Assembly: GCA_964478715.1 (NCBI GenBank)
Contig: CAYZIY010000003.1
Coordinates: forward strand, 6,669 to 70,668
Reading direction: 5' to 3'
Origin: an uncultured Planctomycetales bacterium
GTDB taxonomy: Bacteria; Omnitrophota; Gorgyraeia; Zapsychrales; JBDRMG01
DNA length: 64,000 bases
Positions 33,452 to 64,000 of the stretch are shown one piece after another; position 1 is the first letter of the stretch, and each line of letters begins with the position of its first letter. Under the pieces are notes generated by a model. The model worked only from the letters and a program-made list of their open reading frames with translations, ran no database searches and was not told where the DNA came from. Both the position numbers and the translations under genes were made by a program.

Positions 33452-33563
33452 TCTTATTATTTTAGCACAAAGTGCGCTGAAAATGTAATTGTGAAATATC
33501 TCTTTAAAGCAGAGTCCATCATGGTTATAATACTGCCAGATTAAACAATGAAAAGATCGAAAG

Positions 33564-35889: not shown

Positions 35890-36594
35890 ATGAAAAAATG
35901 TGTCCGTTGCCAAATTGATTACGAAGATGACAGCCGTGTTCGTTGCCTGTATTGTGATTCAAAATTGATGGACGGCCGGCTGGATCGGCTCTTTCGCAGT
36001 GCAACTGAAACACAGGTGATCAATAAGCTGATCGCTGAAGATCATAGGATCAATCATGAACGCGTGGAGCATCTGATCGGAAGTTATTTTCGCAGTAAAT
36101 CTTTTTCCTTTCTCTATGCGTTTAATCGTCAACAGTATAAAATGGGGAAGAGATTTAAGCGAATCTTTGTGCAACCATTAGATTTTTCTACAATTATCAG
36201 GCTACCATGGTTTGCCATCAATCTTTTGGATTCGATAGTTCTCCGATTATTTTTCAGAACCTATTGCCCTCAATGTGATTTCAAGTGCAAGAAATTTCTT
36301 GGGCAAACTTTTCACACTAAAGAAGAGTGTTCCTATAATCAGGAATATTCAAGGATACTTAATGAAATTATGACCGGAAGTATTATTCTCAATGAATCCC
36401 GATATAAAAGACAGATGTTCAAAAAATTGCAAGCAGGAGAACGTAGTGCCTATTTCGATCTATGTTCGAAAAAGAGGGATTTTGAAATCTTTATCGATAT
36501 GGTCGTGATTTTGATTTCTATCGCACTTATTATCTATGTGTTTATTCAGTTGATCATGCCGACGCTGGCTGTCGCTTTTGATTTTTATTGGTAA
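35890..36594 (+). CDS. hypothetical zinc-ribbon protein with a C-terminal TM anchor
   Basis: N-terminal CVRCQ...CLYCDS. Second Cys cluster CPQCDFKCKKF. C-terminal hydrophobic helix VVILISIALIIYVFIQLIM. Confidence 0.35.
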   Translation: MKKCVRCQIDYEDDSRVRCLYCDSKLMDGRLDRLFRSATETQVINKLIAEDHRINHERVEHLIGSYFRSKSFSFLYAFNRQQYKMGKRFKRIFVQPLDFSTIIRLPWFAINLLDSIVLRLFFRTYCPQCDFKCKKFLGQTFHTKEECSYNQEYSRILNEIMTGSIILNESRYKRQMFKKLQAGERSAYFDLCSKKRDFEIFIDMVVILISIALIIYVFIQLIMPTLAVAFDFYW

Positions 36595-45802: not shown

Positions 45803-46486
45803 ATGCCTACTTTTAATCTTGTAGCTTCGATGTTTTCTTTTTTGATTGTCGGGATTATTGTTTTCTTGTTGTTTTGGCCCGAGGAATCGAGAAAAAAAAT
45901 AAAGAATACAGTTCAAAGAAAGAAAACGATTCAGCCTTTTGGCAAAGACTGGAAGAAGGTGGCCTTAAGACTGGAGCGTTATACCTATTCATTGAAGAAA
46001 CAGATTGAAATGGTTGAGAACGAAAACAAAAAGGTTTTGCGTGAGATAGCCGTCGAAAAATTAAGAAATCAGAAACTCAAGGACCGCCTCAAGCAGGAAA
46101 AACAATGGTTGACCAAGGATAAGGAGACATTGAACCGCCTTGGTCAGGAGATGCACCAGATGAAAGCAGATCTCCATAAGGCTCAGCAGGAGAGGGAGAA
46201 TGAGTTTGGTTACCGCTTAAAGCTGGAACGCCAGAACAAGGAAGGTCGGGATCAGTTGAAAAAGCTACAACTTGAAAACCGTCGTCTTGTGGTAAAAATG
46301 ATGAAAGAGGAAGCCCAGAACAAGGAGCGGGAACAGGAAGCGGTTGAGCTGAGACGGGTCAATCGAGAACTTGAAAAAGAAAGCGAGGAGGCGACCTTCG
46401 TAGCCAAAAGCGAATATGAAAATATGAAGAAACAATTAGAAGCCAAAGAGAAGGAGCTTGAGCGCATTCTTAGAGAGAAGAGATAG
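45803..46486 (+). CDS. membrane-anchored coiled-coil protein
   Basis: N-terminal TM, then ~190 aa of K/E/Q/R-rich heptad-like sequence. Confidence 0.4.
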   Translation: MPTFNLVASMFSFLIVGIIVFLLFWPEESRKKIKNTVQRKKTIQPFGKDWKKVALRLERYTYSLKKQIEMVENENKKVLREIAVEKLRNQKLKDRLKQEKQWLTKDKETLNRLGQEMHQMKADLHKAQQERENEFGYRLKLERQNKEGRDQLKKLQLENRRLVVKMMKEEAQNKEREQEAVELRRVNRELEKESEEATFVAKSEYENMKKQLEAKEKELERILREKR

Positions 46487-48253: not shown

Positions 48254-49396
48254 TTGATGGATATTCAAACAAAAGCCGTTCACGGTTTTCAAAAGAAAGA
48301 TGCGGATTATCGACCGGTTGTCTCCCCGATTTATTCTAGCGCTTCTTTTTGTTTCGAAAGTATTCAAAAGAAACCGCTTTATGATTATTCCCGCTTAAAT
48401 AATCCGACGCGACAGGATCTGGAAGAAAATATAGCTGCCTTGGAAAGCGGTCACTGCGCTATTGCAACGGGCAGCGGTATGGCCGCTATTACAACTGTTC
48501 TTTTTCTCTGTCGGCCAAAAGATCATGTGATCGCCAATAGGGATCTTTACAGCGGAACGCGCTTTCTTTTTCAGGATGTTTTTACCAAGATGGGAATCGA
48601 ATATTCTTTTGTTGATTGTCGGGAAAGCGAGCAAGTCAAGCAGGCGATAAGACCGAATACAAAGATGATCTGGATGGAAACACCCTCCAATCCGCTTCTT
48701 CATGTCCTCGATATTCCTGAGACGGTTGCACTGGCCAAAGAAAATAACATCTTGACGGTTGTCGATAATACGTTTCTTTCTCCTTATTTTCAAAGGCCCT
48801 TTGAATTCGGAGCTGATCTGGTAGTTCATTCCAGCACCAAGTATTTAAATGGACACCAAGATATTATCGGTGGAGTTATTGTCTTGCGCGAAAAGCAATG
48901 GGAAAAATCCTTGAAATCATTAGCCGTTAATTTGGGGGTGACCCAGTCTCCTTATGAAGCCTGGCTGACGCATCGAGGACTAAAAACCTTGGGGCCGCGT
49001 ATGGAGATGCACCAGCGAAACGGTTTGCATATTTCTAACTTTCTTAAAAACCAACCTTTAGTAAAAAATATCCGTTATCCGGGATTGAATACGCATCCTC
49101 AGTTCGAATTGATTAAAAAGCAAATGAAAGGCTTCGGCGGAGTGATCACCTTTGATCTGGAGACGGAAAAACTTCCGCTGGAGAAGTTTTTCTCACGGTT
49201 AAAAATATTTAAACTGGCCGAATCTTTGGGGGGAGTCCAGTCTTTGATTGAAGCGCCTTATTATATGAGCCATTCCTGTCTCGGAGAAGAGCACTTGAAA
49301 AAGACGGAAATCAAGCCGCAAACAGTTAGAATTGCCGCTGGCATTGAGACACCCAAAGATTTGATAGAAGATTTAAAGAACGCCTTGGAAGTATAG
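48254..49396 (+). CDS. Cys/Met-metabolism PLP enzyme (cystathionine gamma-synthase / beta-lyase / methionine gamma-lyase family)
   Basis: SSTKYLNGHQDIIGGVIV (PLP lysine). ESLGGVQSLIEAP. ~380 aa. Confidence 0.8.
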   Translation: MMDIQTKAVHGFQKKDADYRPVVSPIYSSASFCFESIQKKPLYDYSRLNNPTRQDLEENIAALESGHCAIATGSGMAAITTVLFLCRPKDHVIANRDLYSGTRFLFQDVFTKMGIEYSFVDCRESEQVKQAIRPNTKMIWMETPSNPLLHVLDIPETVALAKENNILTVVDNTFLSPYFQRPFEFGADLVVHSSTKYLNGHQDIIGGVIVLREKQWEKSLKSLAVNLGVTQSPYEAWLTHRGLKTLGPRMEMHQRNGLHISNFLKNQPLVKNIRYPGLNTHPQFELIKKQMKGFGGVITFDLETEKLPLEKFFSRLKIFKLAESLGGVQSLIEAPYYMSHSCLGEEHLKKTEIKPQTVRIAAGIETPKDLIEDLKNALEV

Positions 49397-49432
49397 AGTT
49401 AGCTTAATATTCATGAAGAGACAGGCGGGCCA

Positions 49433-50209
49433 TTGGTGGTTTATAGCAAGATGAAATATCTTAGTGCATTCTTTCTTTACTTCGCTTTCTTTTGGTTGAT
49501 GGGTGCGGGGTCCATAGAGCTTTCCGATATTGAAACGGCTTTGATTCAGGAAAGATATCAGGAAGCCGAGAATATGGTCCAGAGTTTTATTGATAGCTAT
49601 CCGCTTCAAGACGAATATCAGCAGGCTCTTTATTATTTGGGATTGATTCGCTTGCGCCAGGGGCAATATCCGAAGGCTCGCGAGACGTTTCGAATTTGCC
49701 TGCAAGACACATTTCGAAGGCCTATTTATGATAAAGCATATATTGGTCTGATTGATTCGTATTATCTCGAAGGGAATTTCAAAGAAGGCCTGAAATTGGC
49801 TGAGGAGCTCTATGAACATAAACCCGATAGCGAGATTTTAAGTCTTGTTTATCTGAAGATAGCTCGTGGGAACCTTAAACTCTCTCGATGGAAAAAGGCC
49901 CGGCAATATTTGCGCAAGATTATTAATAAATATCCGGAAAGTCTTGAGGCGCATTTGGCCGAACAGCTAATGGATGAAGAGAAGTACTTTGCCGTCCAAG
50001 TCGGATCTTTTTTGGATCGCGAAAGGGCGGAAAGATTGCTTGCGGAGCTTAGATCCAAAGGGCAATATGCCTATATTGTCGAGACAACGGATCCTGAAGA
50101 AAAAACTTTTTATCGCGTCAGAGTCGGCGAGATGACGGATTTACAGCAAGCTAATCGACTTAAAGAAAGATTAAACAGTTTCGGTTATCCTACCCGTATC
50201 TATCCCTGA
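49433..50209 (+). CDS. TPR-like + SPOR-domain protein (septal peptidoglycan binding)
   Basis: Signal peptide. TPR-like helices. C-terminal YFAVQVGSFLDRERAERLLAELRSKGQYAYIVET...FYRVRVGEMTDLQQANRLKERL matches the SPOR domain. Confidence 0.6.
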   Translation: MVVYSKMKYLSAFFLYFAFFWLMGAGSIELSDIETALIQERYQEAENMVQSFIDSYPLQDEYQQALYYLGLIRLRQGQYPKARETFRICLQDTFRRPIYDKAYIGLIDSYYLEGNFKEGLKLAEELYEHKPDSEILSLVYLKIARGNLKLSRWKKARQYLRKIINKYPESLEAHLAEQLMDEEKYFAVQVGSFLDRERAERLLAELRSKGQYAYIVETTDPEEKTFYRVRVGEMTDLQQANRLKERLNSFGYPTRIYP

Positions 50210-51135
50210 TGAATTCCAAAACAATCATTTTTATCGTTGGCCCGACGGCCGTGGGCAAGTCCGATGTGGCTTATCTCTTGGCCAAAAAAATTGATGCAGA
50301 GATTATTTCCTGCGATTCAATGCAGGTATATAAGAATATTCACATCGCTAGCAATAAGCCGTCTCCAGTTGTGCTCAAAAAGATTCCGCATCACTGTCTG
50401 GATCTTATCGATATTTCCAAAGAATTCAATGTCGCAGACTTTTATAAAAGAGCTAATCGCGCTGTGAGGGGTATTCATCGAAAGGGAAAATCGGTTATTG
50501 TTTGCGGTGGTAGCGGGCTATATATGGCCATTCTTCTCGATGGGATTTTTAGCGCAGGCGCTTTTAGCAAGCGCGTTCGACAAAAACTCCTCAAACAGGT
50601 CAAAGAGAAATCAGGGCGGTCTCTGTTTGATCAATTGAAGAAGAGGGATCCGCAAGCGGCCCAGAATATTCATCCGAATGATGCAAAAAAGATTGTTCGC
50701 GCCCTGGAAGTCTGCCTGGTTGCGGATCAGCCCTTTTCAAGGATAAAGAAAAAAAGGGAAGGGCTTTGGGGAAAATATTCGGTTCGGATATTTTGCCTTT
50801 CGAAAAATCGGCCAGAGCTTTATCAATGCATTAATCAAAGAGTTGATCATATGTTTAAAAAGCAGTTGGTGAAAGAAATCAAAAATCTACATGAAGAAAA
50901 ATGGAGCCAAACCGCACAGGCATTGATCGGAGTCAAGGAGATCAGAGATTATCTTAACGGGAAATGCTGCTTGGATGAGGCCAAGAGATTGATTCAAAGA
51001 AATACCAGACGGCTGGCGAAAAGGCAGTTGACCTGGTTTCGCAAAGATAAGCGATTAGAATGGATAGATGTCGATTCTTTGACCCCTGCGCGTGTGGCCG
51101 AAGAGATTACTCGACGATTGGAGAAAGAGCAGTGA
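50209..51135 (+). CDS. miaA: tRNA dimethylallyltransferase
   Basis: IFIVGPTAVGKSDVAYLLAKKIDAEIISCDSMQVYK (P-loop then DSMQVY). Confidence 0.85.
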   Translation: MNSKTIIFIVGPTAVGKSDVAYLLAKKIDAEIISCDSMQVYKNIHIASNKPSPVVLKKIPHHCLDLIDISKEFNVADFYKRANRAVRGIHRKGKSVIVCGGSGLYMAILLDGIFSAGAFSKRVRQKLLKQVKEKSGRSLFDQLKKRDPQAAQNIHPNDAKKIVRALEVCLVADQPFSRIKKKREGLWGKYSVRIFCLSKNRPELYQCINQRVDHMFKKQLVKEIKNLHEEKWSQTAQALIGVKEIRDYLNGKCCLDEAKRLIQRNTRRLAKRQLTWFRKDKRLEWIDVDSLTPARVAEEITRRLEKEQ

Positions 51136-52367
51136 GCGAAAGAATTTGTATCGTCACAATTGATTTTAACAGGCGCAATGACTGGTTGCCTGAAGATATC
51201 GCCGATGAATTAAAAGAGCTCGTTTCCTCTTGCGGTGGTAGACCAGCGCATTCATTAATCTGCCGCTGCCCCAAGCCGACCCCGGATTTATTGCTCGGAA
51301 GCGGAAAGGTTAAAGAGATTAAAGAGTGCTGTGTAGAACACAATATTGATACGGTTATTTTCAGTGTGGATCTTAAAGGCAATCAGCAGCGGAATTTAGA
51401 AGAGATCCTTGGTGTTAAAACGATTGACCGTACGCAGTTGATCCTGGATATTTTTGCCAAGCGGGCCAAAAGTCAAGAGGGCCGCGTGCAGGTCGAGCTC
51501 GCCCAGCTTCAATATTTGAGGCCTCGATTGGTTGGGAAGGGGGTTGAGCTCTCTCGACTGGGCGGTGGCATCGGGACATTAGGGCCTGGTGAAACCAAAC
51601 TCGAGACAGATCGACGACGTATTGAAACACGCATTGCCAAATTAAAGAAAGAACTCAAAGAAATCAGCCAAAACAGACATTTGAGAAGAAAAAAGAGAAT
51701 AAAAAAACAGATTCCTACGGTAGCTTTGGTTGGCTATACCAATGCAGGGAAATCTACTTTGCTTAATACGCTGACGGAATCCAAGCAGATGACGCGAAAT
51801 GGACTTTTCACCACTCTGGATCCCATCACGCGGCAGCTGACCCTTTCGAATCATCAAACGATCGTTTTATCCGATACCGTCGGATTCATGGTTAATTTAC
51901 CGCATCATTTGATCGAGGCTTTTAAGGCCACTCTGGAAGAGGTTATTGAGGCGGATCTTCTGTTGCATGTTCTGGATGTGAGCCATCCAAAGTTTAGACT
52001 GCTTCACGATGCCGTGATCCAGGTCCTGCGGGATCTGGACGCCTCCGATAAAACCATGTTGACGGTTTTTAATAAAATTGATCTTTTGCAAGACCGAAAG
52101 TGGCTTTGTGATCTTGAAAAGAATTATGATCATGCGGTCGCCGTTTCAGCCTTGAAGAAAGAAAATATCGATCAATGTAATGAAAAGATATCCAGTCTTT
52201 TACGTAAGACCATGATCGAAATCGATGTGACACTTCCTCTTCATCGGATGGATCTTGTTCATCGTCTTCACCAGGAAGGTGAGATTCACTTGATTGAGTA
52301 TAAGGCCGATTCTATTCACATTTGTGCCGTTGTTCCTATCCACATTGCCCATCAATACAACGCTTAA
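51134..52367 (+). CDS. hflX: GTPase HflX
   Basis: GTG start overlapping the miaA stop (GTGA). HflX N-domain. G1 GYTNAGKST, G3 DTVGF, NKID. Confidence 0.85.
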
Positions 52368-52483
52368 AAGACAAATCGAAAGTCAGCGAAATATTATTCT
52401 ACATTTTCTGGGAAAAATATATCGGGTTGTTAACCATACTTGCACGACGAGAAATTGATCAAAAAGAAAAACTTAAAAGAAAG

Positions 52484-52510
52484 CGTTTTCGCAAAAACGG
52501 CATTTTCTTT
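52484..52510 (+). terminator. weak rho-independent terminator downstream of hflX
   Basis: CGTTTT-CGCA-AAAACG hairpin followed by GCATTTTCTTT. Confidence 0.45.
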
Positions 52511-52538
52511 AGTTATTCCTGCGGAAGGACAATATATA

Positions 52539-52567
52539 TTGCATACTTTAATTAGAAGACAATTATA
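52539..52567 (+). promoter_or_regulatory. putative promoter driving the riboswitch leader and giant-adhesin operon
   Basis: TTGCAT (52539-44), a 17-nt spacer, then ATTATA/TTATAG (52562-68). Confidence 0.35.
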
Positions 52568-52619
52568 GCGTTTTGCCGATAAACCCGTAAAGTCGGGCCC
52601 GGCGGAGCCAAAGACGAAA

Positions 52620-52770
52620 GAGCTTTGGCGAAGACGGGGGCTAAACCATCGCAAGATGGCGACGCAAAGTTAAGGGTCCTTGCATTTTCAAGGATAGCCT
52701 AACTGCCGAAACAAAGACAGCTAGACTAAATGAACCTATTCCTTGGTGCAGGAATAGGTTTTTTACTTTA
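52620..52770 (+). promoter_or_regulatory. candidate c-di-GMP-I (GEMM) riboswitch with an intrinsic-terminator expression platform
   Basis: GGGGGCUAAACC, then hairpin CCAUC-GCAA-GAUGG (GNRA loop), then CGACGCAAAG, then a second hairpin GGUCCUUG-CAUUUUC-CAAGGAU, then AGCC. This parallels the Vibrio Vc2 aptamer ...GGGCAAACCAUUCGAAAGAGUGGGACGCAAAGCC... Followed by terminator CCTATTCC-TTGGTGCA-GGAATAGG TTTTTT (52735-52764). Confidence 0.5.
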
Positions 52771-52789
52771 AATACCCAACGGAGACAAA

Positions 52790-52987
52790 ATGGATAGTTT
52801 TGTTATGACTGAAGAACAAATTCATGAATGGGTTAATCGGATGCAAATAAATAAAAGAAAGCCTTTTCTTCATGATAAGGATTTTCAAATAAAAGCTTGG
52901 CAGATTCATCAAAATTATTGCATGTTTGAAAGGAAGGCAGGGGTTTTGAAAATAACCCCTGTTTTTTTATGTGGGAGGCAAACATGA
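52790..52987 (+). CDS. small ORF (65 aa) translationally coupled (ATGA) to the giant adhesin gene
   Basis: GGAGA ribosome-binding site 5 nt upstream. Stop TGA 52985-87 overlaps ATG 52984 of the giant ORF. No recognisable motif. Confidence 0.3.
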   Translation: MDSFVMTEEQIHEWVNRMQINKRKPFLHDKDFQIKAWQIHQNYCMFERKAGVLKITPVFLCGRQT

Positions 52988-55900
52988 AAAAAACATTTCC
53001 CTATCTTTTGGCATTCTTAATGGCTTTATGGAGTCCAGCTAAGGGCTTCTCATTGGAAATCACCCATGTTTCCGGTTGTGCTGAGGTCGATACAGATTAT
53101 CAATGTGTTGAAATCGCCAGTTGTCAAGATCTTACTCAATCTAACACATATTATTTGCTGGCGGACGATATTGTTACCGGTGGAACGTGTTTTACCAATC
53201 ACGTCAGCAATATTCACTTGGATCTTAACAGCTATACCGTCAGTTATGCTCAGACGGAACCGGGACATGCCTTTTATGAACAATGGTCTAATCGGGATAA
53301 TGTTACGATTGAAAATGGCTTCATGATTGGCGGCTATCAGAACAATAGTCACGCTCTTTATTGGGTTACAGACGGATCAGACAACCTTGTCATTCGCAAT
53401 TTGAGCTTAAGCGTTGCCGGGGTCGAGACAAGCGGTATTAAAATCGGTACGGGCAATAATCTTGAGATTCATCATGTGAATATTGAAATGGATTCAGATA
53501 AAGCCGATCCATGCTCTCATTATGGAGAACCGATCGCTGGCATAAGCCTCGCTCATCGTGGAGGCGATATTGATATTCACCATAACTTTGTGACTGGAAC
53601 CGGAATGACTGGAATTGTCACTTCCAGCTGCGGGACCTATACCGAACCTCTAGAAATTCACAACAACTATATTAGTACATGGAGTCCGGTCAGGGACGGT
53701 TATGCTATTGGGATTTCGGGTACTAATAATAGCTGCTCGGACGGAACATTGATTTACGATAATACGATCAATCAACAAAACGGCCGAGGGATTATTGTTG
53801 ATGGATGGACCGGCAATGAATCTTACGGACCGGGAAATATCGAAATGTACGGCAATCATATTACGGTCAAAGAAGGGTGGGACTGCGAATATGATCGACC
53901 AGGTACAGCCGCAGGCATCCGACTAAGGTTTGGTGCTCATGATGTCTATGCGCACGACAATGAGATTTACGGTTTGGCCGGCACAGGTGTAGCTGTGGGA
54001 TCAGAGCCAGGTAAAGATGGAGCCACCGCCATTGGAATTTATTCGGGAAGCAGTCTTCCTTACGGGCTCAATAATCGATTTGAGAATAATTATGTGGAGG
54101 TTTCCACCAATGATGCCCGTTATCCGGCTATTGGCCTTTATGTCGCCGGAGGAGATCAAAATACCTCAGCGGCTTTTTCCCAGTTTTTAAACAATACTAT
54201 CGTTAGTAATAACAAACCGATCAGGATTGGATATAGCGATGGAGGAGGGTCTCAGGCCGATTTTGACTCCAACACCATTGTTCGTGGAGATAATCCCTTA
54301 GATTTTCATACCTACACGGTTGGATACTGGATTTTCGGTGCGCATCATATCGATTTTCTTGATTCGATCGTTGAAGGAGGCGCTAGCGCTCAGGATATTG
54401 TTTTTGACAGCGCCTGCGAAGGATCGTGCGCGAATTATGAAAATATCACCTTATCCTGGACTCTAAATTTGCAAGTTGAAAATAGTGGTGCCAATAGGAT
54501 TGAGGGAGCCAGTGTGCAAATCACAGATTCTGATAACCAAATAGTGGCTCAAGGTCAGACGGACGCACAGGGTCTGTTTAGTCAGACTCTAGTTGAGAAA
54601 AGCTTTGAGGGTATTCTTCAACCCGATGAGTTTATTCATACGCCTCATGAAATTCAAATTGAAAAAGCCGGTTATCAGACATATTCAGATTCGCTTGTCA
54701 TGGATTCAACAAAAACAGTGATTGTCAATCTTCAGGAAGGAAGTTCGAATCAGGCGCCCATTCTTGAACCTCTTACGGAATGGTCTGTCTTTACTGGTGA
54801 GAGTATTGAAATACTTGTCTCGGCTATAGATCCTGATAATGATCCTATAGAGCTTAGCGCTTCAACACTTCCTAGCGGAGCCCAATTCTTAGATTATGCA
54901 AACGGGACTGGAATTTTTAGCTGGATTCCTTCCGTGGATGGACTTTATTCGATCAGCTTCACAGCATCCGACGGTTATCTAAGTGATATAGAAACGTTAC
55001 AGATTGCCGTTCTTGCAGGCGCACCAGAAGGCAATCAGGCTCCCGTCTTATCTGAAATCAGCGATCAAACGGGGTACCCTTTTGAGCTTTTGACGTTTGA
55101 GGTGACAGCTACCGACTCTGATGATGATCTCTTAACTTATTGGGCCGAGAATCTTCCCAATGGAGCCGATTTTATGGATCAGACATTCATCTGGTTTCCC
55201 GATGATACTCAATTAGGTACTCACACAATAACGTTTTTTGTCAGCGATGGGGAATATACAGATTCCCAAGATGTAACAGTGACCATTCAAGACAGCGCCG
55301 GATGCGTTTATCCTCAGACGTATCCGCATCCCGACGGCTCATGCCGTGTGTTGCCGCATATTAATGTGGCCGGGGTATCTTATAGCAATCCTGATACAGA
55401 CCAAGAATATGACTGGCGAGTAGAGCATTATGATCTTCTCCTTTTTACTTTTGGGTCCTATGTTCTCGATGAATTTATTGGCGTTAAAGAAAGGTCGCCA
55501 GGATTGGTTTCTCTTAGATATGACAATATGCATTCTCACATCATGTATCACGATAGAAAAATGAATGCACTGGATGATTGGATTGAGAATCACCCAGAAT
55601 ATGGAGTTTTTGAAGATTATTTTCTTCATTATAAATATGATTGTATTCAAGCTGGAATTGAAAGAAAAGGCTGGAATCCCGATGAGGATTTGAATGTCAA
55701 TCACATTAGAGATGGTTATGAAGCAAACCCACAAACAGATCCTATTGATCCAAACCGCAGCGCTGACTTCAAGCATGAAAGCAGAATAATGACCAGATAT
55801 AACCGGACAGATCGTGTTTTTGCTAATGTGGGGCATGCTGGCTATCAAGCTTTTAATGCGCAATTTTCTTATGATGAAGTTCATACAGCCGATGTTCCAA

Positions 55901-58900
55901 GCATTGGCTATGATTTTGATGGAATGTTTGTGGATAATACAAATACTTATGCTTTTATGTGGGACAGTGTTCCAGACAATGAAGTTTTAGAATATCCGGA
56001 TGATCCTCAAAGAGAAGAAGATTGGCATGAGGATATGGTTGAAACTTTTGCTGCCGTCAAGGCCCAATTAGCTGATAAAAAACTCTATATTAATACGATA
56101 TATTTTCATCTTCCACAATACTTCCCAGTCACCGACGGTGATTTTAAGGAATATGTTATTCACGGCCGTTCTAGTATGGGAGGCGGCGAACCTTATTATA
56201 TGCATTTGGCAAGATTGGCAACAGAAGCAGAGCAATATTCTGTGTTAACAGTAGCTAATTATACTGATGAAAGCGGAAATCCGTTATATACGTTTTCAGA
56301 AGATAGGTATAAAATTTTCACCTTAGCCCAATATTATTTATTGCATAGTCCTTATACGTACTTTAACTATCAGGTAGGAAATACCTCATGGAATCATGAC
56401 TTACATGCGCAGTGGTTTGAGGCGATGGGATACAATATTGGAATTCCTATTGGTGATGAGTATATTTATGCCACAGATAATCAACCTAATGGGCAGGCCG
56501 CTGTCTATGCGCGGGAATTCACCAATGGGCTTGTTTTGGCAAAATTCAAACCGAATTGGGTGAATGACTTTGATCAACCATCGACGCATGATTTAGGCGG
56601 AAGCTATAAGCTTTTGGGTGTCGATGGATCTCTGGGGCCGGTGATCAATCAAATCACTTTGCGCAATTCACAAGCTGCTATTCTGATTCCTGCGAGCAGT
56701 GGCGGTGAAAATTACCCACCAGTTCTACAGCCAATCGGAAACAGAGAAGTGCTGGAAGGAGCCACACTTAACTTTAGTGTCTCGGCGAGTGATCCCAATG
56801 GAGATGTTCTTACCTATACAGCCGAAAATATTCCCGCGGGTTCAAATTTCTCGAATCAAACATTTACCTGGACACCGGGCTATGATCAAGCCGGAACTTA
56901 CTCTGTGAATTTTATTGTCAGTGACGGGGAATTAAGCGACAGTGAACAGATCCAAATCGCCGTTGTCGATAATGATCCTGATACCCAAGCGCCGTCAATT
57001 CCTCAGAATTTTACTGCCCAGGCTTTGTCAGGTGTCCAAGTGCAGCTAACTTGGGAGGTGTCAACAGATAATGTAGGCGTTACAGGCTATCATATTTACC
57101 GCGATGGAGCTGAAGTAGCAACTACGACAACAACGTCTTACCTTGATTCAAGCCTGGAGCAGTTAACGAGATATTCATACGAAATCTCTGCTTATGACGC
57201 AAGCGGAAATGAATCTGCGCTCTCAGATGCAGTCGATGTCACAACGCCTGGAACAACGACCGTCGAAGTGATCGGTTTAGTTCGAGAAGATTGCAGTGGA
57301 TATTCCAATTGCTATTCATCATTGACTCAGTGGGAGTCCAGCTATGGCGGCGTAGATTTTGGATCTTGCCCCCACGGTGATCTAGTCTGCGCTGATGCGG
57401 TGGCCATAGCGCAGATAGACGGCATTTGGAATAGTCCCGAAACCGGCCGAGTTGTGATCGACGGATGGACAACAGACGAGGATCATTATATCAAGATTTT
57501 TACTGCCCCTGAAGCCAGACATGACGGCAAATGGAACGAATCAAAATATCGCCTGGAAGGCTCTCATCTGTGGACACCCATTCTTCAAGTCAGTGAAGAT
57601 TATGTGGTTATCGATGGCCTGCAAATATTCAATAGCGCTACTCAAAATCAACCGGTGGGTGTTGTGATTGATAACCGTTCTACATTAGGAGGGGATGTTC
57701 GTATTAAAAATAATATTATACGATTTCCCAAAGAGGTTTTGCCGTATCAGGCTGGCATTACGCTAAGGATTGATCCTCAGACAACGGTAAAAGTTCTAAA
57801 CAATATCATTATCAATCCCTACGATGGTATTTCGGCCGCTCCCTGGAGCGGAGATAAAGGAACGTATGTGATTTATAATAATACTCTTGTCGACCCCAAG
57901 CGGTATGGGATTCAGTGCGCCTTTGAAGGCAGCGGTCAGGGCGCCCTTTTACTTAAGAACAATCTCGTTCAGGGTATCAATACTAATTATGATATTTATG
58001 GATCCTCAAATCTTAATCTCTTTGAGCACGCGGCTAATATTTCGGAAGATGCCTCATCGCCTGACGATGCGCTCAGAAACAAACAGGCTCTGTTCGTTGA
58101 GGAAGCTCTCGATGATTTTCATCTTTCCGAAAGCGATATCACAGCTAAGGACATGGGTGTGGATTTAAGCAATAATAGTTACGCTCCCTTTGACAATGAT
58201 ATTGACGGTGAAAATCGAGCATCACTTTGGGATATCGGCGCGGATGAGTATGTTTCTTCTGCTGTCAATCATCCGCCGGTTCTAGAAACGATCGATCCCC
58301 AGGAAGGCTTTATCGGTGATCCGATTATTTTTGAGGCGACAGCGACAGATCCCGATGGGGATGTCTTGAACTATTCGGCGACCGGACTTCCAGCTGGAGC
58401 GATTTTTGAGAATCAGGTTTTCAGCTGGACTCCTGACGAGACCCAAGAGGGTCAACATCAAATAACTGTTACGGTTGACGATGGAGATCTTGATGATTCT
58501 CAAGTGGTTTCTATTACCGTTGTTGGGATTAATGATCCTCCGATTCTTGAGCCAATCGGCAACAAAATTGTGAACGAAGGCGAGGAATTAAGTTTTACCA
58601 TCAATGCTATGGATCCGGATGAAGACGGTATTCTTTTGACTATCTCGACCGAGATCCCGGATGTTGTTCTTACAGATAATGGAAACGGCACAGCTGATTT
58701 CAGCTGGATACCTGGCTATGATCAAGCCGGCAGTTATCAAGCGACCTTTAACGCTCAGGATGAAGGCGGCTTAACAGATCAAGAGACAATCACCATTGAA
58801 GTCTATGGAACAAACCGGCCGCCTGAAATTGATCAGATCTCGGATCAAACAATTAATGAGGGAGAGGAGCTTATTTTTGATGTAATGGCTATAGATCCTG

Positions 58901-61900
58901 ATGATGACGGAATTCTTCTTAGCATGAGCGGCTTGGACGATGCTTCCTTTGTTGATTACGGCGATGGCTCAGGAACCTTTAGCTGGAGTCCAGATTTTAC
59001 TCAATCAGGTAATTATCAGGCGGTCTTTACAGCCCAGGACGATGGGGGTTTGAGTGATCAGGTTCAGGTTAGCATTCAGGTTGTTAATGTCAACCAGCCC
59101 CCAATCCTTGATCCTGTTGGCGATCAATCCGTGAATGAAGGCCAATTTCTCGACATCACTCTCAGCGCTATTGATCCTGACGGAGAAACACTGATTTACT
59201 CGGCTGCTGATCTTCCGCAAGGCGCCGCACTAATCGAGAATCAATTAACCTGGACGCCTACGTATGATCAATCCGGTTCTTATCCGGTCACCTTAAGAGT
59301 TGAAGACTTAGGGGGTCTGATTGATTCTGAGACAATAACGATTACCGTTGATCACATCAACAGAGCTCCTATTCTTGATCCCATCGGTAACCATCAGGTG
59401 GCTGAAGGCAATACAATATCGATTACGTTGAGTGCTTTTGATCCAGATGGAGATCTTTTAAACTATCATGTACGCAATGAGCCTCAAGGGGCAAGTCTGA
59501 TAGGTCACGTCTTTAGCTGGACGCCTGGTTACTCAGATGCCGGAAATTATGAAGTGACTTTTAGTGTAGATGATGGACAGCTGAATGATATTGAGGAAAT
59601 TATTATTAGCGTTGGAAATATAAATCGGCCTCCGGAATTTGATATCATCAGCCCTCAGGTCGTGGATGAAAATCAGATCTTGTTGTTCATGCTGAGCGCT
59701 TCAGATCCCGATGGCGACAATTTGATTTACAATTCCATCGGCTTACCGATAGGTTCTTCTTTTGATTCAGCAACCAAAGAATTTACATGGACGCCCGATT
59801 ATGATCAGGCAGGTACTCATGTTGCAGAATTCAGTGTGACCGATGGAGATCTTAGCGATACTCTCACCGTCGAGATTGCTGTAATGGATGTCAACAGGAC
59901 ACCAACCCTCGAACCTTTGCAGGCAGAATATAGCGTTAATGAAAACGAAGTCTTCATCATTTCCTTGGATGCCTCTGATCCTGATCAGGATGCTTTAAGC
60001 TTGACCATGCAGCCGGCTTTAGAGGGCGCTAGAATTGATAATCAAATACTAAGTTGGCTGCCGAGCTTTGAGCAAGCCGGCGTTTATGAAGTGACCTTTA
60101 CGGTGAGTGATGGAGATCTTTCTGACCAGCAAACGACAACGCTCATTGTTAACAATATCAACCGGGCTCCGGTCTTTGAACCCATCGGTAACCAGGAAGT
60201 TGAGGAAGGAGAGAGCCTTTCCATAATTCTCAACGCTTCTGACCCCGATGGAGACGATTTGACATTTACTTCATCTGATTTACCGGACGGTTCTTCGATT
60301 GGCGGAGAAAACGGAAATATCTTTCTCTGGTCTCCCACGCATACCCAGTCAGGAGTTTATGAGGTGACCATAACGGTTACCGATTCACAACTCACTGGTT
60401 CACAGATGAGTGAGATAACTGTTGTAAATATCAATCGGGCACCTGTTCTTGATCCTATCGAAAATCAATCGATTCAGGAAGGGGAAACGCTGGAAATCCA
60501 GCTTTCAGGAACGGATCCCGACGGAGATGCACTGACATACTCAGCTTCCAATCTTCCCGAAGGCGCTAATTTCTCAAGCGCAAGCGGACTTTTTCAATGG
60601 ACACCAACATTTGATCAAAACGGAACTTACATACTTATTTTTGTTGTCAGTGATGGTGAATTAACTGATTCTCAAGAGGCAACGTTGACAGTGATTAATA
60701 ATAACCGGATACCTTCTTTAGATCCTATCGGGCCCAAAGAAGTCCATGAAAACTCAAATCTCACCTTTCAGATCAATGGATCAGATCCTGATGGGGATAG
60801 CTTGCAGTTTACAGCCAAGCAACTTCCTGAAGGAGCGAACTTCACAAATCAGATATTCAGCTGGACTCCAAATTATGATCAGGAAGGGGAATACTTTGTC
60901 ACCTTTACAGTAGATGATGGACAGCTCTCTGATTCTGAAGAAATCTTTATCACTGTCTATGGATCCAACAGAGCTCCTGTCTTGGATCCAATTGGAGATA
61001 GAACGGTTGACGAGGGAGATCTTTTAACTTTTACAGTCACAGCCACTGATCCTGACGGTCATCCTTTAACGTACTCAGCTTCTAATCTTCCAGAAGGCGC
61101 TACCTTTGCAAATCAAGCTTTCAGCTGGACTCCTGACTTTGGTCAATCTGGAAGTTATGAGGTCACTTTCACCGTGATGGATACTAGTGAGCTTCTCATT
61201 CTGGATGATTCAGAGACAATCACGATTACAGTCAATGATGTGAATCGGGCACCTGTGCTGGATCCCATAGGAAATCAATCGATTCAGGAAGGGGAAACGC
61301 TGGAAATCCAGCTTTCGGGAACGGATCCCGACGGAGATGTATTGACATACTCGGCTTTAGGTCTTCCTGAAGGCGCTGACTTCTTTGAAGACTTAGGGCT
61401 GTTTACTTGGACACCAACCTTCGGAGAGCAAGGAATCTACACTTTATCTTTTATTCTCAGCGACGGTTCTTTGACTGACGAAGAGTCTATTTCTATTTCT
61501 GTTGGCAATGTGAATCAACCACCTGTTTTAGACCCTATTGATGATCAGGCAGTTTTAGAGGGAGAACAGATCAGCATCCAGCTTGCCGCCAGCGATCCGG
61601 ATGGACAGACATTAATCTATTTCGCAGAAAATCTTCCTCAGGGAGCTGATCTTTTATCGGAGAATGGTTTGTTTGAATGGATTCCCGGATTTGATCAGTC
61701 GGGTGAGTATATTGTTACCTTGGGCGTGACAGACGGAGTATTAGAAGATACACAGGATGTCATTTTGACGATCACCAATGTCAATCGCGCGCCTCAAATC
61801 AGCCCTGTTGAACAACAGGAAGTTCATGAGAATCAAAATCTAAGCTTCTCTATTACTGCGGATGATCCCGACGGGGATATCATAACCTATTCGGCTCAGG

Positions 61901-64000
61901 GATTACCCAGCGGAGCTCAGTTTACGGATCAAACTTTCAATTGGACCCCTGATTATGAGCAGAAAGGAACCTATCAGGTAGGTTTTACGGCCAGTGATGG
62001 TGAGCTGTCAGGTTCAATGACCGTTACGATAATTGTCTATGGAACCAATCGGCCGCCGGTTTTAAGTCCGATCCACGATCAAATCATTGAGGAGGCCGAT
62101 TTATTATCCTTCGATGTTATAGGCAGTGATCCCGATGGAAATTCTCTTAGTTACAGAGCTTCGGGTTTGCCTCAAGGGGCCATCTTTGAAAACCAGGTCT
62201 TCAGCTGGATTCCGACATATGATCAAGCTGGAAGCTATGAGGTTACCTTTACGGTTATGGATACCAGTGAATTAATGGTTCTGGAAGACAGCGAGACGAT
62301 CACTATCACCGTTGTCAATGTCAATCGAGCACCGGTTTTGGAGTCAATCCCTAATCAGGAAATAGAAGAAGGGCAGCAGCTTACTTTTAGTATCGCGGCC
62401 ACAGATCCTGATGATGATTCCTTAACATTCACTGCTGGAGATTTACCGCAGGGTGCTCAGTTTGAAAATCAAATCTTCAGTTGGATTCCCGCAAATGAGC
62501 AAGTCGGAGTCCATGAGGTTACTTTTAATGTCAGCGATGGAGCATTGTCTGATTCCCAAACAATTTCGATTGTCGTTACAGAAATTGTCATACCACCGGA
62601 AAATCATCCGCCGGTTCTTGATCCTATCGGGAATAAGGAGATGGACGAAGGCCAGCAATTGAGTTTTGTTGTCACCGCTTCTGATCCTGATGGAGATCAG
62701 CTGATGATTTCTGCTTCTCATATTCCCTTCGGCGCACAATTTAACGAACAATCCGGTCTATTTGAATGGACACCCTCTTATGAGCAGGCCGGAGAATATC
62801 AAATAACTTTTATAGTATCGGACGGTCAGTTGCGCGATTCAGAAGCCATCACAATTAATGTAAGAGACGTGAATCTTGCACCGATTTTGGAACCCATTGG
62901 TGACAAAAGAGTTGAAATCAGAACAGAACTCAGCTTTCAAGTAATGGGTTTAGATCCAGACAATGATTCGCTATCCTATTCTGTCAATGGTTTGCCGCAG
63001 GGAGCCAAATTCAAAAATCAATTATTCCGCTGGAAACCATCCAAAGAACAGGTAGGCCAGTATCAACTGGAATTCTTTGTCAGCGATGGCCAGTTGCGGG
63101 ACAGCGAGATGATTCAAATTAATGTGTATGAAACCAATACTGATCCTAGCGAAAATCAGCCGCCTATTTTAGATGCCATTGGCAATAAAACTGTCGCGGC
63201 CGAAGATTTGCTCAGGTTTCGTATTAAATCGATAGATCCCGACGGAGATCTCTTGATTCTGGTCGTTCGCGATTTGCCTGCTGGTGCGTCAATGGATGAT
63301 GATCTCTTTCAATGGAGACCCACAGACGATCAAGTCGGACAATATTTCGTCACATTTATTGTCACCGAAGGGGTTTATGACGAATCGGGGGTGCTGATTG
63401 CCGCTGATGGTGCTTATAGTGATCAGGAGACTGTTAAGATCAAGGTCTTTAAAGGGGAGCAACCGCAGCCGCGTTCAACGGAGAACGAAACACAGATACT
63501 GGAAGGTGAATCAGGCCAGGATTCGGCAAATGGGACGGATGGTGATGATCTGTCTCAAACGTCATCCTATTATGGGGGTTTAGCGTATATAGTTTCCGAT
63601 GACAATGAAAAACAAGAGATGACCCTCCAGCAATCAGACAAAACAGCAAAGGGAAATTCTGCAAAAAGCAAAACTAGAAAGAATAACAGAGCGCCTGTCA
63701 TTTTGACCAATGATCAAACAGAACTGGAAGAGGGAACACAAGCAGTCATTCAGGTTTTTGCCAGCGATCCTGACCAGGATTCTTTGGTTCTTTCAACAGA
63801 AGAACTGCCCTTGGGAGCCGTATTTGTGGATCGGGGCGATGGCATCGGAGAGATTGTTTGGAATCCTTATGATGATCAGGTGGGTGAGCATACAATCAAT
63901 GTGATTGTGACAGACGGCCAGGTTCAGGACACAAAAAGCATCAATTTTATGATCAATAAGGCCAGTGATGCCCCAGATGAAGGGAATTTGCCTGAGGAAT
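52984..64000 (+). CDS. giant secreted multi-domain surface protein (adhesin-like), 5' portion of >3,670 codons: signal peptide, beta-helix, CarboxypepD_reg-like, cadherin-like repeats, unknown ~470-aa domain, FN3, second beta-helix, >=21 further cadherin-like (He_PIG/dystroglycan-type) repeats. The 3' end is outside the window.
   Basis: Frame 1 is open from ATG 52984 (GGGAGG ribosome-binding site 8 nt upstream) to the window end. I translated line-by-line and found no stops. Signal peptide MKKTFPYLLAFLMALWSPAKG. Repeats of the form N[RQ][AP]P.[LI][DE]PIGN..V.EGE.L.F...A.DPDGD.L.Y.A..LP.GA.F....F.WTP...Q.G.Y.V.F.V.DG.L.D. FN3 consensus ...GYHIYRDGAEVATTTTTSY...YSYEISAYDASGNES. Absent from the supplied ORF track because no stop codon occurs in the window. 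Confidence 0.85.
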   Translation, partial: MKKTFPYLLAFLMALWSPAKGFSLEITHVSGCAEVDTDYQCVEIASCQDLTQSNTYYLLADDIVTGGTCFTNHVSNIHLDLNSYTVSYAQTEPGHAFYEQWSNRDNVTIENGFMIGGYQNNSHALYWVTDGSDNLVIRNLSLSVAGVETSGIKIGTGNNLEIHHVNIEMDSDKADPCSHYGEPIAGISLAHRGGDIDIHHNFVTGTGMTGIVTSSCGTYTEPLEIHNNYISTWSPVRDGYAIGISGTNNSCSDGTLIYDNTINQQNGRGIIVDGWTGNESYGPGNIEMYGNHITVKEGWDCEYDRPGTAAGIRLRFGAHDVYAHDNEIYGLAGTGVAVGSEPGKDGATAIGIYSGSSLPYGLNNRFENNYVEVSTNDARYPAIGLYVAGGDQNTSAAFSQFLNNTIVSNNKPIRIGYSDGGGSQADFDSNTIVRGDNPLDFHTYTVGYWIFGAHHIDFLDSIVEGGASAQDIVFDSACEGSCANYENITLSWTLNLQVENSGANRIEGASVQITDSDNQIVAQGQTDAQGLFSQTLVEKSFEGILQPDEFIHTPHEIQIEKAGYQTYSDSLVMDSTKTVIVNLQEGSSNQAPILEPLTEWSVFTGESIEILVSAIDPDNDPIELSASTLPSGAQFLDYANGTGIFSWIPSVDGLYSISFTASDGYLSDIETLQIAVLAGAPEGNQAPVLSEISDQTGYPFELLTFEVTATDSDDDLLTYWAENLPNGADFMDQTFIWFPDDTQLGTHTITFFVSDGEYTDSQDVTVTIQDSAGCVYPQTYPHPDGSCRVLPHINVAGVSYSNPDTDQEYDWRVEHYDLLLFTFGSYVLDEFIGVKERSPGLVSLRYDNMHSHIMYHDRKMNALDDWIENHPEYGVFEDYFLHYKYDCIQAGIERKGWNPDEDLNVNHIRDGYEANPQTDPIDPNRSADFKHESRIMTRYNRTDRVFANVGHAGYQAFNAQFSYDEVHTADVPSIGYDFDGMFVDNTNTYAFMWDSVPDNEVLEYPDDPQREEDWHEDMVETFAAVKAQLADKKLYINTIYFHLPQYFPVTDGDFKEYVIHGRSSMGGGEPYYMHLARLATEAEQYSVLTVANYTDESGNPLYTFSEDRYKIFTLAQYYLLHSPYTYFNYQVGNTSWNHDLHAQWFEAMGYNIGIPIGDEYIYATDNQPNGQAAVYAREFTNGLVLAKFKPNWVNDFDQPSTHDLGGSYKLLGVDGSLGPVINQITLRNSQAAILIPASSGGENYPPVLQPIGNREVLEGATLNFSVSASDPNGDVLTYTAENIPAGSNFSNQTFTWTPGYDQAGTYSVNFIVSDGELSDSEQIQIAVVDNDPDTQAPSIPQNFTAQALSGVQVQLTWEVSTDNVGVTGYHIYRDGAEVATTTTTSYLDSSLEQLTRYSYEISAYDASGNESALSDAVDVTTPGTTTVEVIGLVREDCSGYSNCYSSLTQWESSYGGVDFGSCPHGDLVCADAVAIAQIDGIWNSPETGRVVIDGWTTDEDHYIKIFTAPEARHDGKWNESKYRLEGSHLWTPILQVSEDYVVIDGLQIFNSATQNQPVGVVIDNRSTLGGDVRIKNNIIRFPKEVLPYQAGITLRIDPQTTVKVLNNIIINPYDGISAAPWSGDKGTYVIYNNTLVDPKRYGIQCAFEGSGQGALLLKNNLVQGINTNYDIYGSSNLNLFEHAANISEDASSPDDALRNKQALFVEEALDDFHLSESDITAKDMGVDLSNNSYAPFDNDIDGENRASLWDIGADEYVSSAVNHPPVLETIDPQEGFIGDPIIFEATATDPDGDVLNYSATGLPAGAIFENQVFSWTPDETQEGQHQITVTVDDGDLDDSQVVSITVVGINDPPILEPIGNKIVNEGEELSFTINAMDPDEDGILLTISTEIPDVVLTDNGNGTADFSWIPGYDQAGSYQATFNAQDEGGLTDQETITIEVYGTNRPPEIDQISDQTINEGEELIFDVMAIDPDDDGILLSMSGLDDASFVDYGDGSGTFSWSPDFTQSGNYQAVFTAQDDGGLSDQVQVSIQVVNVNQPPILDPVGDQSVNEGQFLDITLSAIDPDGETLIYSAADLPQGAALIENQLTWTPTYDQSGSYPVTLRVEDLGGLIDSETITITVDHINRAPILDPIGNHQVAEGNTISITLSAFDPDGDLLNYHVRNEPQGASLIGHVFSWTPGYSDAGNYEVTFSVDDGQLNDIEEIIISVGNINRPPEFDIISPQVVDENQILLFMLSASDPDGDNLIYNSIGLPIGSSFDSATKEFTWTPDYDQAGTHVAEFSVTDGDLSDTLTVEIAVMDVNRTPTLEPLQAEYSVNENEVFIISLDASDPDQDALSLTMQPALEGARIDNQILSWLPSFEQAGVYEVTFTVSDGDLSDQQTTTLIVNNINRAPVFEPIGNQEVEEGESLSIILNASDPDGDDLTFTSSDLPDGSSIGGENGNIFLWSPTHTQSGVYEVTITVTDSQLTGSQMSEITVVNINRAPVLDPIENQSIQEGETLEIQLSGTDPDGDALTYSASNLPEGANFSSASGLFQWTPTFDQNGTYILIFVVSDGELTDSQEATLTVINNNRIPSLDPIGPKEVHENSNLTFQINGSDPDGDSLQFTAKQLPEGANFTNQIFSWTPNYDQEGEYFVTFTVDDGQLSDSEEIFITVYGSNRAPVLDPIGDRTVDEGDLLTFTVTATDPDGHPLTYSASNLPEGATFANQAFSWTPDFGQSGSYEVTFTVMDTSELLILDDSETITITVNDVNRAPVLDPIGNQSIQEGETLEIQLSGTDPDGDVLTYSALGLPEGADFFEDLGLFTWTPTFGEQGIYTLSFILSDGSLTDEESISISVGNVNQPPVLDPIDDQAVLEGEQISIQLAASDPDGQTLIYFAENLPQGADLLSENGLFEWIPGFDQSGEYIVTLGVTDGVLEDTQDVILTITNVNRAPQISPVEQQEVHENQNLSFSITADDPDGDIITYSAQGLPSGAQFTDQTFNWTPDYEQKGTYQVGFTASDGELSGSMTVTIIVYGTNRPPVLSPIHDQIIEEADLLSFDVIGSDPDGNSLSYRASGLPQGAIFENQVFSWIPTYDQAGSYEVTFTVMDTSELMVLEDSETITITVVNVNRAPVLESIPNQEIEEGQQLTFSIAATDPDDDSLTFTAGDLPQGAQFENQIFSWIPANEQVGVHEVTFNVSDGALSDSQTISIVVTEIVIPPENHPPVLDPIGNKEMDEGQQLSFVVTASDPDGDQLMISASHIPFGAQFNEQSGLFEWTPSYEQAGEYQITFIVSDGQLRDSEAITINVRDVNLAPILEPIGDKRVEIRTELSFQVMGLDPDNDSLSYSVNGLPQGAKFKNQLFRWKPSKEQVGQYQLEFFVSDGQLRDSEMIQINVYETNTDPSENQPPILDAIGNKTVAAEDLLRFRIKSIDPDGDLLILVVRDLPAGASMDDDLFQWRPTDDQVGQYFVTFIVTEGVYDESGVLIAADGAYSDQETVKIKVFKGEQPQPRSTENETQILEGESGQDSANGTDGDDLSQTSSYYGGLAYIVSDDNEKQEMTLQQSDKTAKGNSAKSKTRKNNRAPVILTNDQTELEEGTQAVIQVFASDPDQDSLVLSTEELPLGAVFVDRGDGIGEIVWNPYDDQVGEHTINVIVTDGQVQDTKSINFMINKASDAPDEGNLPEE
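58264..63426 (+). repeat. tandem array of ~270-282-nt coding repeats (about 19 consecutive cadherin-like domain units), then a low-complexity linker and a further unit from 63694
   Basis: Unit boundaries (NRAPVLDPIGN-type) at ~58264, 58540, 58812, 59092, 59365, 59626, 59893, 60166, 60436, 60706, 60973, 61246, 61513, 61783, 62053, 62323, 62611, 62878 and 63160. Units 60436-60700 and 61246-61510 share ~90-nt near-identical DNA. Confidence 0.8.

Follow-up and report, generated by a model that had tools for sequence, protein, structure and literature searches.

A 3,759-residue cadherin-like repeat protein with a GHL15/GH168-type hydrolase domain, encoded downstream of a c-di-GMP-I riboswitch in an uncultured bacterium

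What kind of protein is encoded by a frame that is still open after 11 kb, where the available sequence ends, and what might control its expression? This question is raised by the last part of the 64-kb stretch of DNA analysed here (64,000 nucleotides of contig CAYZIY010000003.1; hereafter the window), where the frame that begins with the ATG at 52984 (plus strand, frame 1) runs for 3,672 codons, to 63999, with zero stops in the window translation. The original prediction had singled out this frame as a giant secreted adhesin, likely longer than 4,000 residues, and had remarked that it was missing from the supplied track of open reading frames (ORFs). That the frame stays open is borne out: about 214 in-frame stops are expected from the base composition, the probability of finding none is about 1e-93, and the remaining five frames contain 125 to 359 stops each across 52984-63999. 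The ORF is absent from the track only because such lists require a stop inside the source sequence.

The complete product could be recovered from elsewhere. An exhaustive HMMER search with the central (hydrolase) domain of the protein as the query returned the protein-library entry P0030 (NCBI source, from a contig of 162,309 bp), which is 3,759 residues long; its residues 1-3,672 are 100% identical to the window translation, and 87 further residues follow. Given the length of P0030, the gene ends 87 codons (264 nt including the stop) past the window end, and the product falls short of the more than 4,000 residues expected. The C-terminus beyond the window was read from the P0030 protein sequence; the last 60 nt of the window have no exact match in the genome or metagenome contig collections. 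A GGGAGG box (52973-52978) lies 5 nt before the ATG at 52984, while the alternative in-frame ATG at 52969 lacks a ribosome-binding site, and the database copy does not begin there. Window positions 49755-53933 are reproduced with 0 mismatches in two Logan assemblies from other, independent sequencing runs (SRR7048227 and SRR7048228), and the first 950 nt of the gene are identical in both. Four ORFs of at least 90 residues overlap the gene, three of them antisense (181, 100 and 102 residues) and one on the same strand but out of frame (93 residues); none of the four matches Pfam, and the largest is absent from the genes called in the protein collection. The stretch 52984-64000 is the first 3,672 of the 3,759 codons of one real gene, whose product is large (411 kDa) and very acidic (isoelectric point, pI, about 4). 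When residues 1-1860 were used as the query in one search of the protein collection, no protein covered more than 22% of the query; hence, the whole architecture appears to be unique in that collection.

As to what this protein might do, the main evidence comes from residues 772-1245 (55297-56718, plus strand), which had been described as an unknown domain of about 470 residues. They form a GHL15/GH168-type glycoside-hydrolase (GH) domain, in which a (beta/alpha)8 barrel is followed by a C-terminal beta-sandwich. The domain scores 35.2 bits against Pfam GHL15 (PF14885; gathering score 27), a model that 15 of its 43 relatives match too, and in the predicted structural model its barrel can be superposed on solved GH168 structures. 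Searched against the PDB as a single sequence, the domain has no match; only the profile of its family succeeded, finding the GH168 chains by sequence at E values of 7e-12 to 4e-6. The candidate catalytic residues are D984 (in FDGMFVDN) and E1056 (in FKEYVIH), whose motifs align with ...DGVFID... and ...FEHY... of 8ya6, 9jos and 9f9v; of the 43 aligned sequences, at least 90% keep D984, and E1056 is invariant. In characterized enzymes of this family, D206 and E264 of FunA are essential by mutagenesis (PMC7401878), and the catalytic pair of WfGH168_II is D172/E243 (PMC12534559); both pairs map onto D984/E1056. Furthermore, the spacing of Asp, Asn, Glu and Trp in the domain resembles that of the conserved active-centre residues listed in the latter study (PMC12534559). 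The predicted model and the profile alignment together show a GH168/GHL15-type TIM barrel with its catalytic Asp and Glu conserved. Identity to the GH168 enzymes is only 13-19%, so that their specificity for sulfated fucan is not transferable to this domain. A word-indexed search found one relative of the domain (26% identity), while an exhaustive search found 371 at E of at most 1e-3; these relatives often carry the carbohydrate-binding modules CBM_4_9, CBM6, CBM35 or CBM96, dockerins, or type IX secretion system (T9SS) tails.

The hydrolase domain is preceded by a second module of enzyme type. Following the start codon, residues 1-21 (MKKTFPYLLAFLMALWSPAKG; 52984-53046, plus strand) have the sequence pattern of a Sec-type signal peptide, with KK in the n-region, a hydrophobic core, A-K-G at positions -3 to -1 and no lipobox, which fits the proposed secretion of the product. 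This is also the only hydrophobic stretch of the protein, and no 19-residue window reached the membrane-spanning threshold used. The next domain, BH1 (residues 23-494; 53050-54465, plus strand), is shown by its predicted model to have a right-handed parallel beta-helix fold of the pectin-lyase-like kind, and its top matches among beta-helices are depolymerases, lyases and epimerases. The BH1 family has no Pfam or NCBIfam model, and a PDB sequence search with BH1 as a single sequence gave no match. A protein search found 12 homologues and a scan of JGI metagenomes 14 encoding loci, with possible overlap between the two sets. Among the protein homologues, two bear the labels of DPANN archaea (Diapherotrites and Nanoarchaeota), and dockerin, Big_1 or CarboxypepD_reg domains are present in some homologues; faint Polysacc_lyase_14 and weak Beta_helix Pfam matches occur among the neighbours of one of them.

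Between these two domains, and after the hydrolase, lie smaller beta-rich modules. Residues 495-585 (54466-54738, plus strand) resemble a CarboxypepD_reg beta-sandwich; a Pfam check for this family, suggested earlier, does return PF13620 at this position, although below the cut-off (21.4 bits, E 3e-4; cut-off 32.3), and PF13620 also stands in the precomputed Pfam list of one homologue, P0019. This module is followed by the first two cadherin-like repeats, R1 and R2 (residues 591-678 and 686-771; 54754-55296, plus strand), which were delimited by a phmmer self-search and repeat alignment, while R3 (residues 1245-1331; 56716-56976, plus strand) directly follows the hydrolase. A fibronectin type III (FN3) domain comes next (residues 1339-1417; 56998-57234, plus strand), as had been anticipated; its match to Pfam fn3 (PF00041) is marginal, at 25.5 bits when scanned as a piece (cut-off 25) and 22.1 bits within the whole protein, and the region has BLASTP matches to FN3 arrays in 11 large proteins.

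The last head module, BH2 (residues 1425-1763; 57256-58272, plus strand), is probably a second beta-helix, judging from its sequence pattern. It has a Cys-rich N-cap, a GWTTD...YIKIYTP...RH.GKW motif, a WDIGADE C-cap, and NN[ILVT][ILV] motifs at residues 1576, 1606, 1632 and 1659, that is, at a spacing of 26-30 residues. Modules of this type recur two to three times per protein in the large proteins P0001, P0006 and P0008 (BLASTP, 27-36%), and no family model exists for them. By hhalign, the match between BH2 and the BH1 family is weak (probability 10.7%, E 0.003); one of seven BH2-family segments matches NosD (E 9e-4) and Beta_helix (E 0.24), and neither the single sequence nor the profile of BH2 has a match in the PDB. 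Of the two beta-helices originally proposed, the first is upheld by its predicted model, and the second is probable.

The remainder of the protein consists largely of repeats. R4-R22 are 19 contiguous He_PIG/cadherin-like repeats of about 88 residues each (residues 1764-3471; 58273-63396, plus strand), followed by a low-complexity linker defined by its composition, rich in S, D, G, Q and K (residues 3472-3569; 63397-63690, plus strand), in which there is no repeat or Pfam match apart from one weak fragment, and by the last repeat, R23 (residues 3570-3658; 63691-63957, plus strand). All 23 repeats are 79-93 residues long, with a mean pairwise identity of 42% (range 26-69%), and follow the consensus aPvLdPI..q.V.EGe.L.F...AsDPDGD.L.ysA..LP.GA.F....FsWtP..dQ.G.Y.vTFtVsDG.L.DSetitItV...N., with P2, D26, W52, P54, G60 and D70 invariant. 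Common to them are a DPDGD motif and an N-x-N-x-(A/P)-P junction that recalls the linkers of cadherins. The array that had been predicted scores well above the curated thresholds: 659.5 bits for Pfam He_PIG (PF05345; cut-off 24, 19 stretches) and 412.6 bits for the NCBIfam tandem-95 model (NF012211; cut-off 90, 18 stretches), with 608 bits for Big_9 (PF17963) and further Pfam matches to Cadherin_4, Cadherin_5 and PKD_4. Golvesin_C, End_N_terminal, DUF4251, TraI_2 and Exonuc_X-T_C were also reported in the array; no stretch of these is significant alone, and they were rejected as repeat-driven noise. The repeat profile matches, in order, the accessory immunoglobulin (Ig) domains of the GH107 endofucoidanase MfFcnA (E 5.7e-9), the cadherin-like modules of SraP, protocadherins, and cadherin-23. 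At the DNA level the repeats are diverged, mostly at 60-75% identity (82% over 179 nt in the best pair), and no array was reported by Tandem Repeats Finder; a collapse or mis-assembly of the repeats is therefore unlikely.

The C-terminal tail (residues 3659-3759) begins at 63958-64000 on the plus strand and has its final 87 residues past the window. In a protein with a pI of about 4, it is basic (pI 10), and it ends in a cationic amphipathic segment, RIKEFVGRIIQRFRNNGN. The last 20 residues, with a net charge of +4, give the strongest amphipathic-helix signal in the protein, and the terminal 18-residue window has its highest helical hydrophobic moment (0.67, against a mean of 0.18 with a standard deviation of 0.10). 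None of the C-terminal sorting signals originally proposed (those of the type I secretion system, T1SS, and of T9SS, PEP-CTERM and LPXTG) is present in the C-terminus of P0030. Over the full 3,759 residues there is no GG.G.D, LPxT[GAS] or PEP motif and no C-terminal hydrophobic segment; sorting, RTX, T9SS or barrel domains were found neither by NCBIfam in the full-length protein nor by Pfam in the 87-residue tail, and the Pfam scan of the protein up to the window end gave no RTX family either. Likewise, SecA, S-layer or self-assembly domains have no match in the Pfam and NCBIfam scans of the protein.

The second part of the question concerns the control of this gene. A c-di-GMP-I (GEMM-I) riboswitch aptamer, of the class that binds cyclic di-GMP (c-di-GMP), lies upstream at 52629-52710 on the plus strand, with 274 nt between it and the start of the large gene. 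It is the only Rfam match in the window, and it covers the whole model (positions 1-87 of 87) with 59.6 bits and an E value of 4e-11 (RF01051; gathering score 35). Its first hairpin is capped by a GCAA tetraloop, and in the cmscan alignment the equivalent of G20 of Vc2 is 52639, that of A47 lies within GACGCA, and that of C92 is 52706. According to work on GEMM-Ib from 2015, a G rather than an A at position 20 reportedly separates the sensors of c-di-GMP from those of cyclic GMP-AMP. Following the aptamer by 22 nt is an intrinsic terminator hairpin, T1 (52732-52764, plus strand), with a 12-bp stem (GAACCUAUUCCU/AGGAAUAGGUUU) and then 6 U; the terminator scan and folding give it -15.6 kcal/mol and pair probabilities of about 1.0. 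T1 is presumably the expression platform of the riboswitch. A possible competing helix of 52689-52697 with 52736-52745 is 12 kcal/mol less stable than T1, and constrained folding yielded no credible ligand-dependent alternative or antiterminator; hence, we assign no ON/OFF polarity. As none of the 18 BH1-homologue loci (L019-L022, L025-L038) carries the riboswitch, we rejected the idea that it is a trait of the BH1 family; it is also absent from the two nearest hflX loci. Sub-threshold Rfam matches in the leader (PyrR, L20 leader, BTnc060 and IhtA) are far below their gathering scores and were dismissed as chance.

Two further elements separate T1 from the large gene. The first is a 65-codon ORF (52790-52987, plus strand), with a GGAG box 5 nt upstream and a TGA that runs into the start codon of the large gene (ATGA); NCBI and Logan both list it as a called gene, but it stands alone in its cluster (a singleton), without relatives or a Pfam match. 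The second is a terminator-like hairpin, T2 (52938-52968, plus strand; CAGGGGUU/AACCCCUG, then 7 U; -15.3 kcal/mol), located inside this ORF and 5 nt before the GGGAGG box. The terminator scan listed T2 on the minus strand only; its plus-strand U-run is evident from the sequence itself. According to the minimum-energy fold, a helix of 52920-52927 with 52978-52985 adjoins the start codon of the large gene. From the end of hflX (52367) to the large gene there is no other gene beyond these leader elements. Neither the riboswitch nor the unusual leader had been mentioned in the original prediction.

Does the riboswitch act on the large gene? It might instead produce a short terminated RNA or serve the 65-codon ORF only, with the large gene having its own promoter downstream of T1 or T2. 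T1 is predicted to form whatever the state of the aptamer, the ribosome-binding site is closely preceded by another strong terminator-like hairpin, T2, a weak sigma-70-like match is found at 52926-52953, and BH1-family genes elsewhere lack the riboswitch. Nevertheless, aptamer, T1, leader ORF and large gene all point the same way within a short distance that holds no intervening gene, the ATGA overlap ties the leader ORF to the large gene, and promoter matches are no commoner than in shuffled sequence (3 versus 1.9 expected). We regard such independence of the large gene as unlikely, though it is an alternative that carries real weight. More probably, transcription into the large gene is gated by c-di-GMP through the aptamer and read-through of T1, as in Bacillus thuringiensis, where the Bc2 c-di-GMP-I riboswitch controls the adhesin gene cap (PMC4933901); translational coupling, or a further checkpoint, may be contributed by the 65-codon ORF, which overlaps the gene at ATGA, together with T2. 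We found no paper describing riboswitch control in this lineage.

On balance, it is fairly probable that the large gene encodes a surface or extracellular protein that binds and cuts glycans, its transcription probably being responsive to c-di-GMP. The protein would be exported by Sec, and then stay at the surface or enter the medium. Its N-terminal third would be the working end, in which the depolymerase-like beta-helix, the GH168-like hydrolase and the second beta-helix-like module are set among domains of Ig-like, FN3 and beta-sandwich type; an anionic or surface polysaccharide is the probable ligand of this head and its likely substrate. The 19 contiguous repeats would serve as a long stalk, to which Ca2+ at the DPDGD and N-x-N motifs probably lends stiffness, as it does in cadherins. 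At the other end, the basic amphipathic helix of the C-terminus may tether the protein to the envelope, with the enzyme head pointing away from the cell. The label of "giant adhesin" is too narrow for such a protein, because its enzyme-type domains point to a glycan-degrading function as well.

It could also be argued that the protein is nothing other than an adhesin, in which the beta-helix and the TIM barrel are lectin-like binding modules without catalysis, mounted on a cadherin-like stalk. This appears doubtful to us: the GH168 catalytic Asp and Glu, together with the Asn and Trp listed in the published work, are kept both in the domain and in its family, the best beta-helix matches of BH1 are depolymerases, lyases and epimerases, and the relatives of the hydrolase co-occur with carbohydrate-binding modules and dockerins, as enzymes do. 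Quite improbable is a structural role in the matrix or envelope (a biofilm scaffold, a sheath or an S-layer-like protein), as opposed to an adhesin or enzyme acting on another cell or substrate; the strong acidity, the Ca2+-type motifs, the long Ig-like array and the association with c-di-GMP, a common governor of matrix production, would suit this role, whereas the want of any self-assembly or S-layer domain match, the apparently single copy and the enzyme-type head domains speak against it. That the open frame is an artefact of a chimeric assembly or a pseudogene can be set aside as extremely improbable, for even though repetitive genes are prone to collapse in metagenome assemblies and the body of this gene is known from one assembly only, recognizable domains and repeats span all but short linkers of the 3,672 stop-free codons, the repeats are too diverged in DNA for easy mis-joining, and the 5′ 950 nt recur in two other assemblies.

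Returning to the glycan-binding and glycan-cutting protein that we favour, a more elaborate version of it can be formulated. In a bacterium of PVC (Planctomycetes-Verrucomicrobia-Chlamydiae) or Omnitrophota-like affiliation, a c-di-GMP riboswitch, a two-terminator leader and a coupled 65-codon ORF would time the production of a stalk-mounted, multi-enzyme "glycan drill", made up of an unmodelled depolymerase-like beta-helix, a divergent GH168-like hydrolase and a further unmodelled module, and held by a new kind of C-terminal cationic amphipathic anchor, with which the bacterium would fasten onto a host or prey cell and digest its surface. Taken as a whole, this scenario is speculative and rather improbable.

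The surroundings of the gene are those of an ordinary chromosome, with genes almost entirely on the plus strand. There, 42 of the 49 ORFs of at least 150 residues are on the plus strand, and the GC skew is positive in every 2-kb bin, a uniform sign being expected for a stretch within one replichore. No tRNA or rRNA is present in the 64 kb. The window also holds genes for Mla components (MlaDE), OmpA, GreA, Def, glycosyltransferases and a hybrid histidine kinase; the combination of OmpA, a porin and Mla indicates a diderm cell. In the 53 kb upstream of the large gene there is no secretion system (T1SS included) and no GGDEF/EAL gene. The pair miaA-hflX stands directly upstream of the leader, and the nearest genomes located through HflX are two metagenome-assembled genomes (MAGs), one labelled uncultured Planctomycetales (53%) and the other Candidatus Omnitrophota (50%); this gives the taxon a rough placement as PVC/Omnitrophota-like. 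Four genes at 48254-52367, encoding a Cys/Met pyridoxal-phosphate (PLP) enzyme, a SPOR-TPR protein, MiaA and HflX, are syntenic with 7217-11242 of the Planctomycetales-labelled locus (L001) at 43-53% amino-acid identity, and in L001 neither a riboswitch nor a large gene follows hflX.

Elsewhere in the window, a phosphate block at 1063-19428 (plus strand) encodes Ppx/GppA, a polyphosphate kinase, a CHAD protein, a metallophosphoesterase, a second protein with Ppx domain III, a Na/Pi cotransporter-PhoU protein, a PhoB/PhoR-like pair, a porin, a PstS-like protein and other components of an ABC phosphate transporter (pstSCAB); a protein with low-molecular-weight phosphatase and PhoU domains is encoded at 18343-19428. 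The genes at 29050-31101 and 42014-44023 (both plus strand) form a paralogous pair. Their products, of about 670-680 residues, align from end to end at 30% identity (E 3e-93), and each has an N-terminal half that is a polytopic membrane region and TPR repeats in its C-terminal part. Four ORFs of 193-338 residues have no Pfam match (44028-45044, 45803-46486 and 35890-36594 on the plus strand, and 32993-33574 on the minus strand), of which 35890-36594 is a called gene that forms a singleton cluster.

This locus illustrates a blind spot of annotation, in that ORF tracks which need a stop inside the window miss the largest genes, and it provides a complete domain map for a 411-kDa protein from an uncultured lineage. 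Useful beyond the gene itself are two domain families without a Pfam or NCBIfam model (BH1 and BH2), a very divergent GH168-like clade whose catalytic residues are intact, and the occurrence of a c-di-GMP-I riboswitch before such a gene in this lineage. If the head domains are active, the protein would be a candidate for coupling attachment to the breakdown of anionic polysaccharides, sulfated ones included.

Every element described here is of a known kind; large cadherin-like surface proteins and c-di-GMP-controlled adhesins are well established, and no concept is changed. With the RTX/T1SS giant adhesins (LapA, SiiE, MpIBP and FrhA), the protein shares a length of thousands of residues, a long tandem Ig-like stalk, acidic motifs of the Ca2+ type and ligand-binding modules at one end. 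Unlike them, it has no RTX nonapeptides, it carries a cleavable N-terminal Sec signal in place of the C-terminal T1SS signal, and its head is N-terminal, not C-terminal. Judged by its sequence features, it belongs neither to the RTX/T1SS adhesins nor to the autotransporters, nor is it a protein of the LPXTG, PEP-CTERM or T9SS type.

A second comparison is with the giant proteins of Omnitrophota, which have 10,000-147,000 residues, many transmembrane helices and often a SecA DEAD domain (West-Roberts et al. 2023, 10.1101/2023.11.21.568195; Nielsen & Lui 2026, 10.64898/2026.06.07.730766). In common with them are the combination of attachment-type and carbohydrate-degradation-type domains in one very long secreted protein, the old and diverged repeats, and possibly a related lineage. 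When set against the defining features of West-Roberts 2023 (more than 30,000 residues, numerous transmembrane regions and a SecA DEAD domain), the present protein differs in having 3,759 residues, the signal peptide as its only hydrophobic stretch, and no SecA match.

Riboswitch-controlled adhesin genes are established in several bacteria. The Vc1 riboswitch of Vibrio cholerae, of class c-di-GMP-I, controls the adhesin gene gbpA, and class II c-di-GMP riboswitches precede genes for surface proteins in C. difficile. As in Bc2/cap, the 5′ leader here combines a GEMM-I aptamer with an intrinsic terminator, ahead of a gene for a large surface protein; unlike in that type, the host is an uncultured diderm, and the leader contains a 65-codon ORF and a second terminator-like hairpin.

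With regard to the protein itself, its sequence places it in the He_PIG/tandem-95 repeat class, with a GHL15/GH168-type domain in addition. Cadherin-like-domain proteins of Saccharophagus degradans are likewise large, multidomain, glycan-active surface proteins with such modules. The GH168 endo-1,3-fucanases (FunA/Fun168A of Wenyingzhuangia fucanilytica and the Planctomycetota protein 892_05174, PDB 9f9v) are separated from the present domain by the 13-19% identity given above, by its extra C-terminal beta-sandwich, and by its being embedded in a 411-kDa protein. In the GH107 endo-fucoidanase MfFcnA (PDB 6dms), a catalytic-type head is joined to Ig/cadherin-like modules behind an N-terminal secretion signal, as is the case here; unlike MfFcnA, however, the present protein combines 23 repeats and three different head modules in one chain of 3,759 residues.

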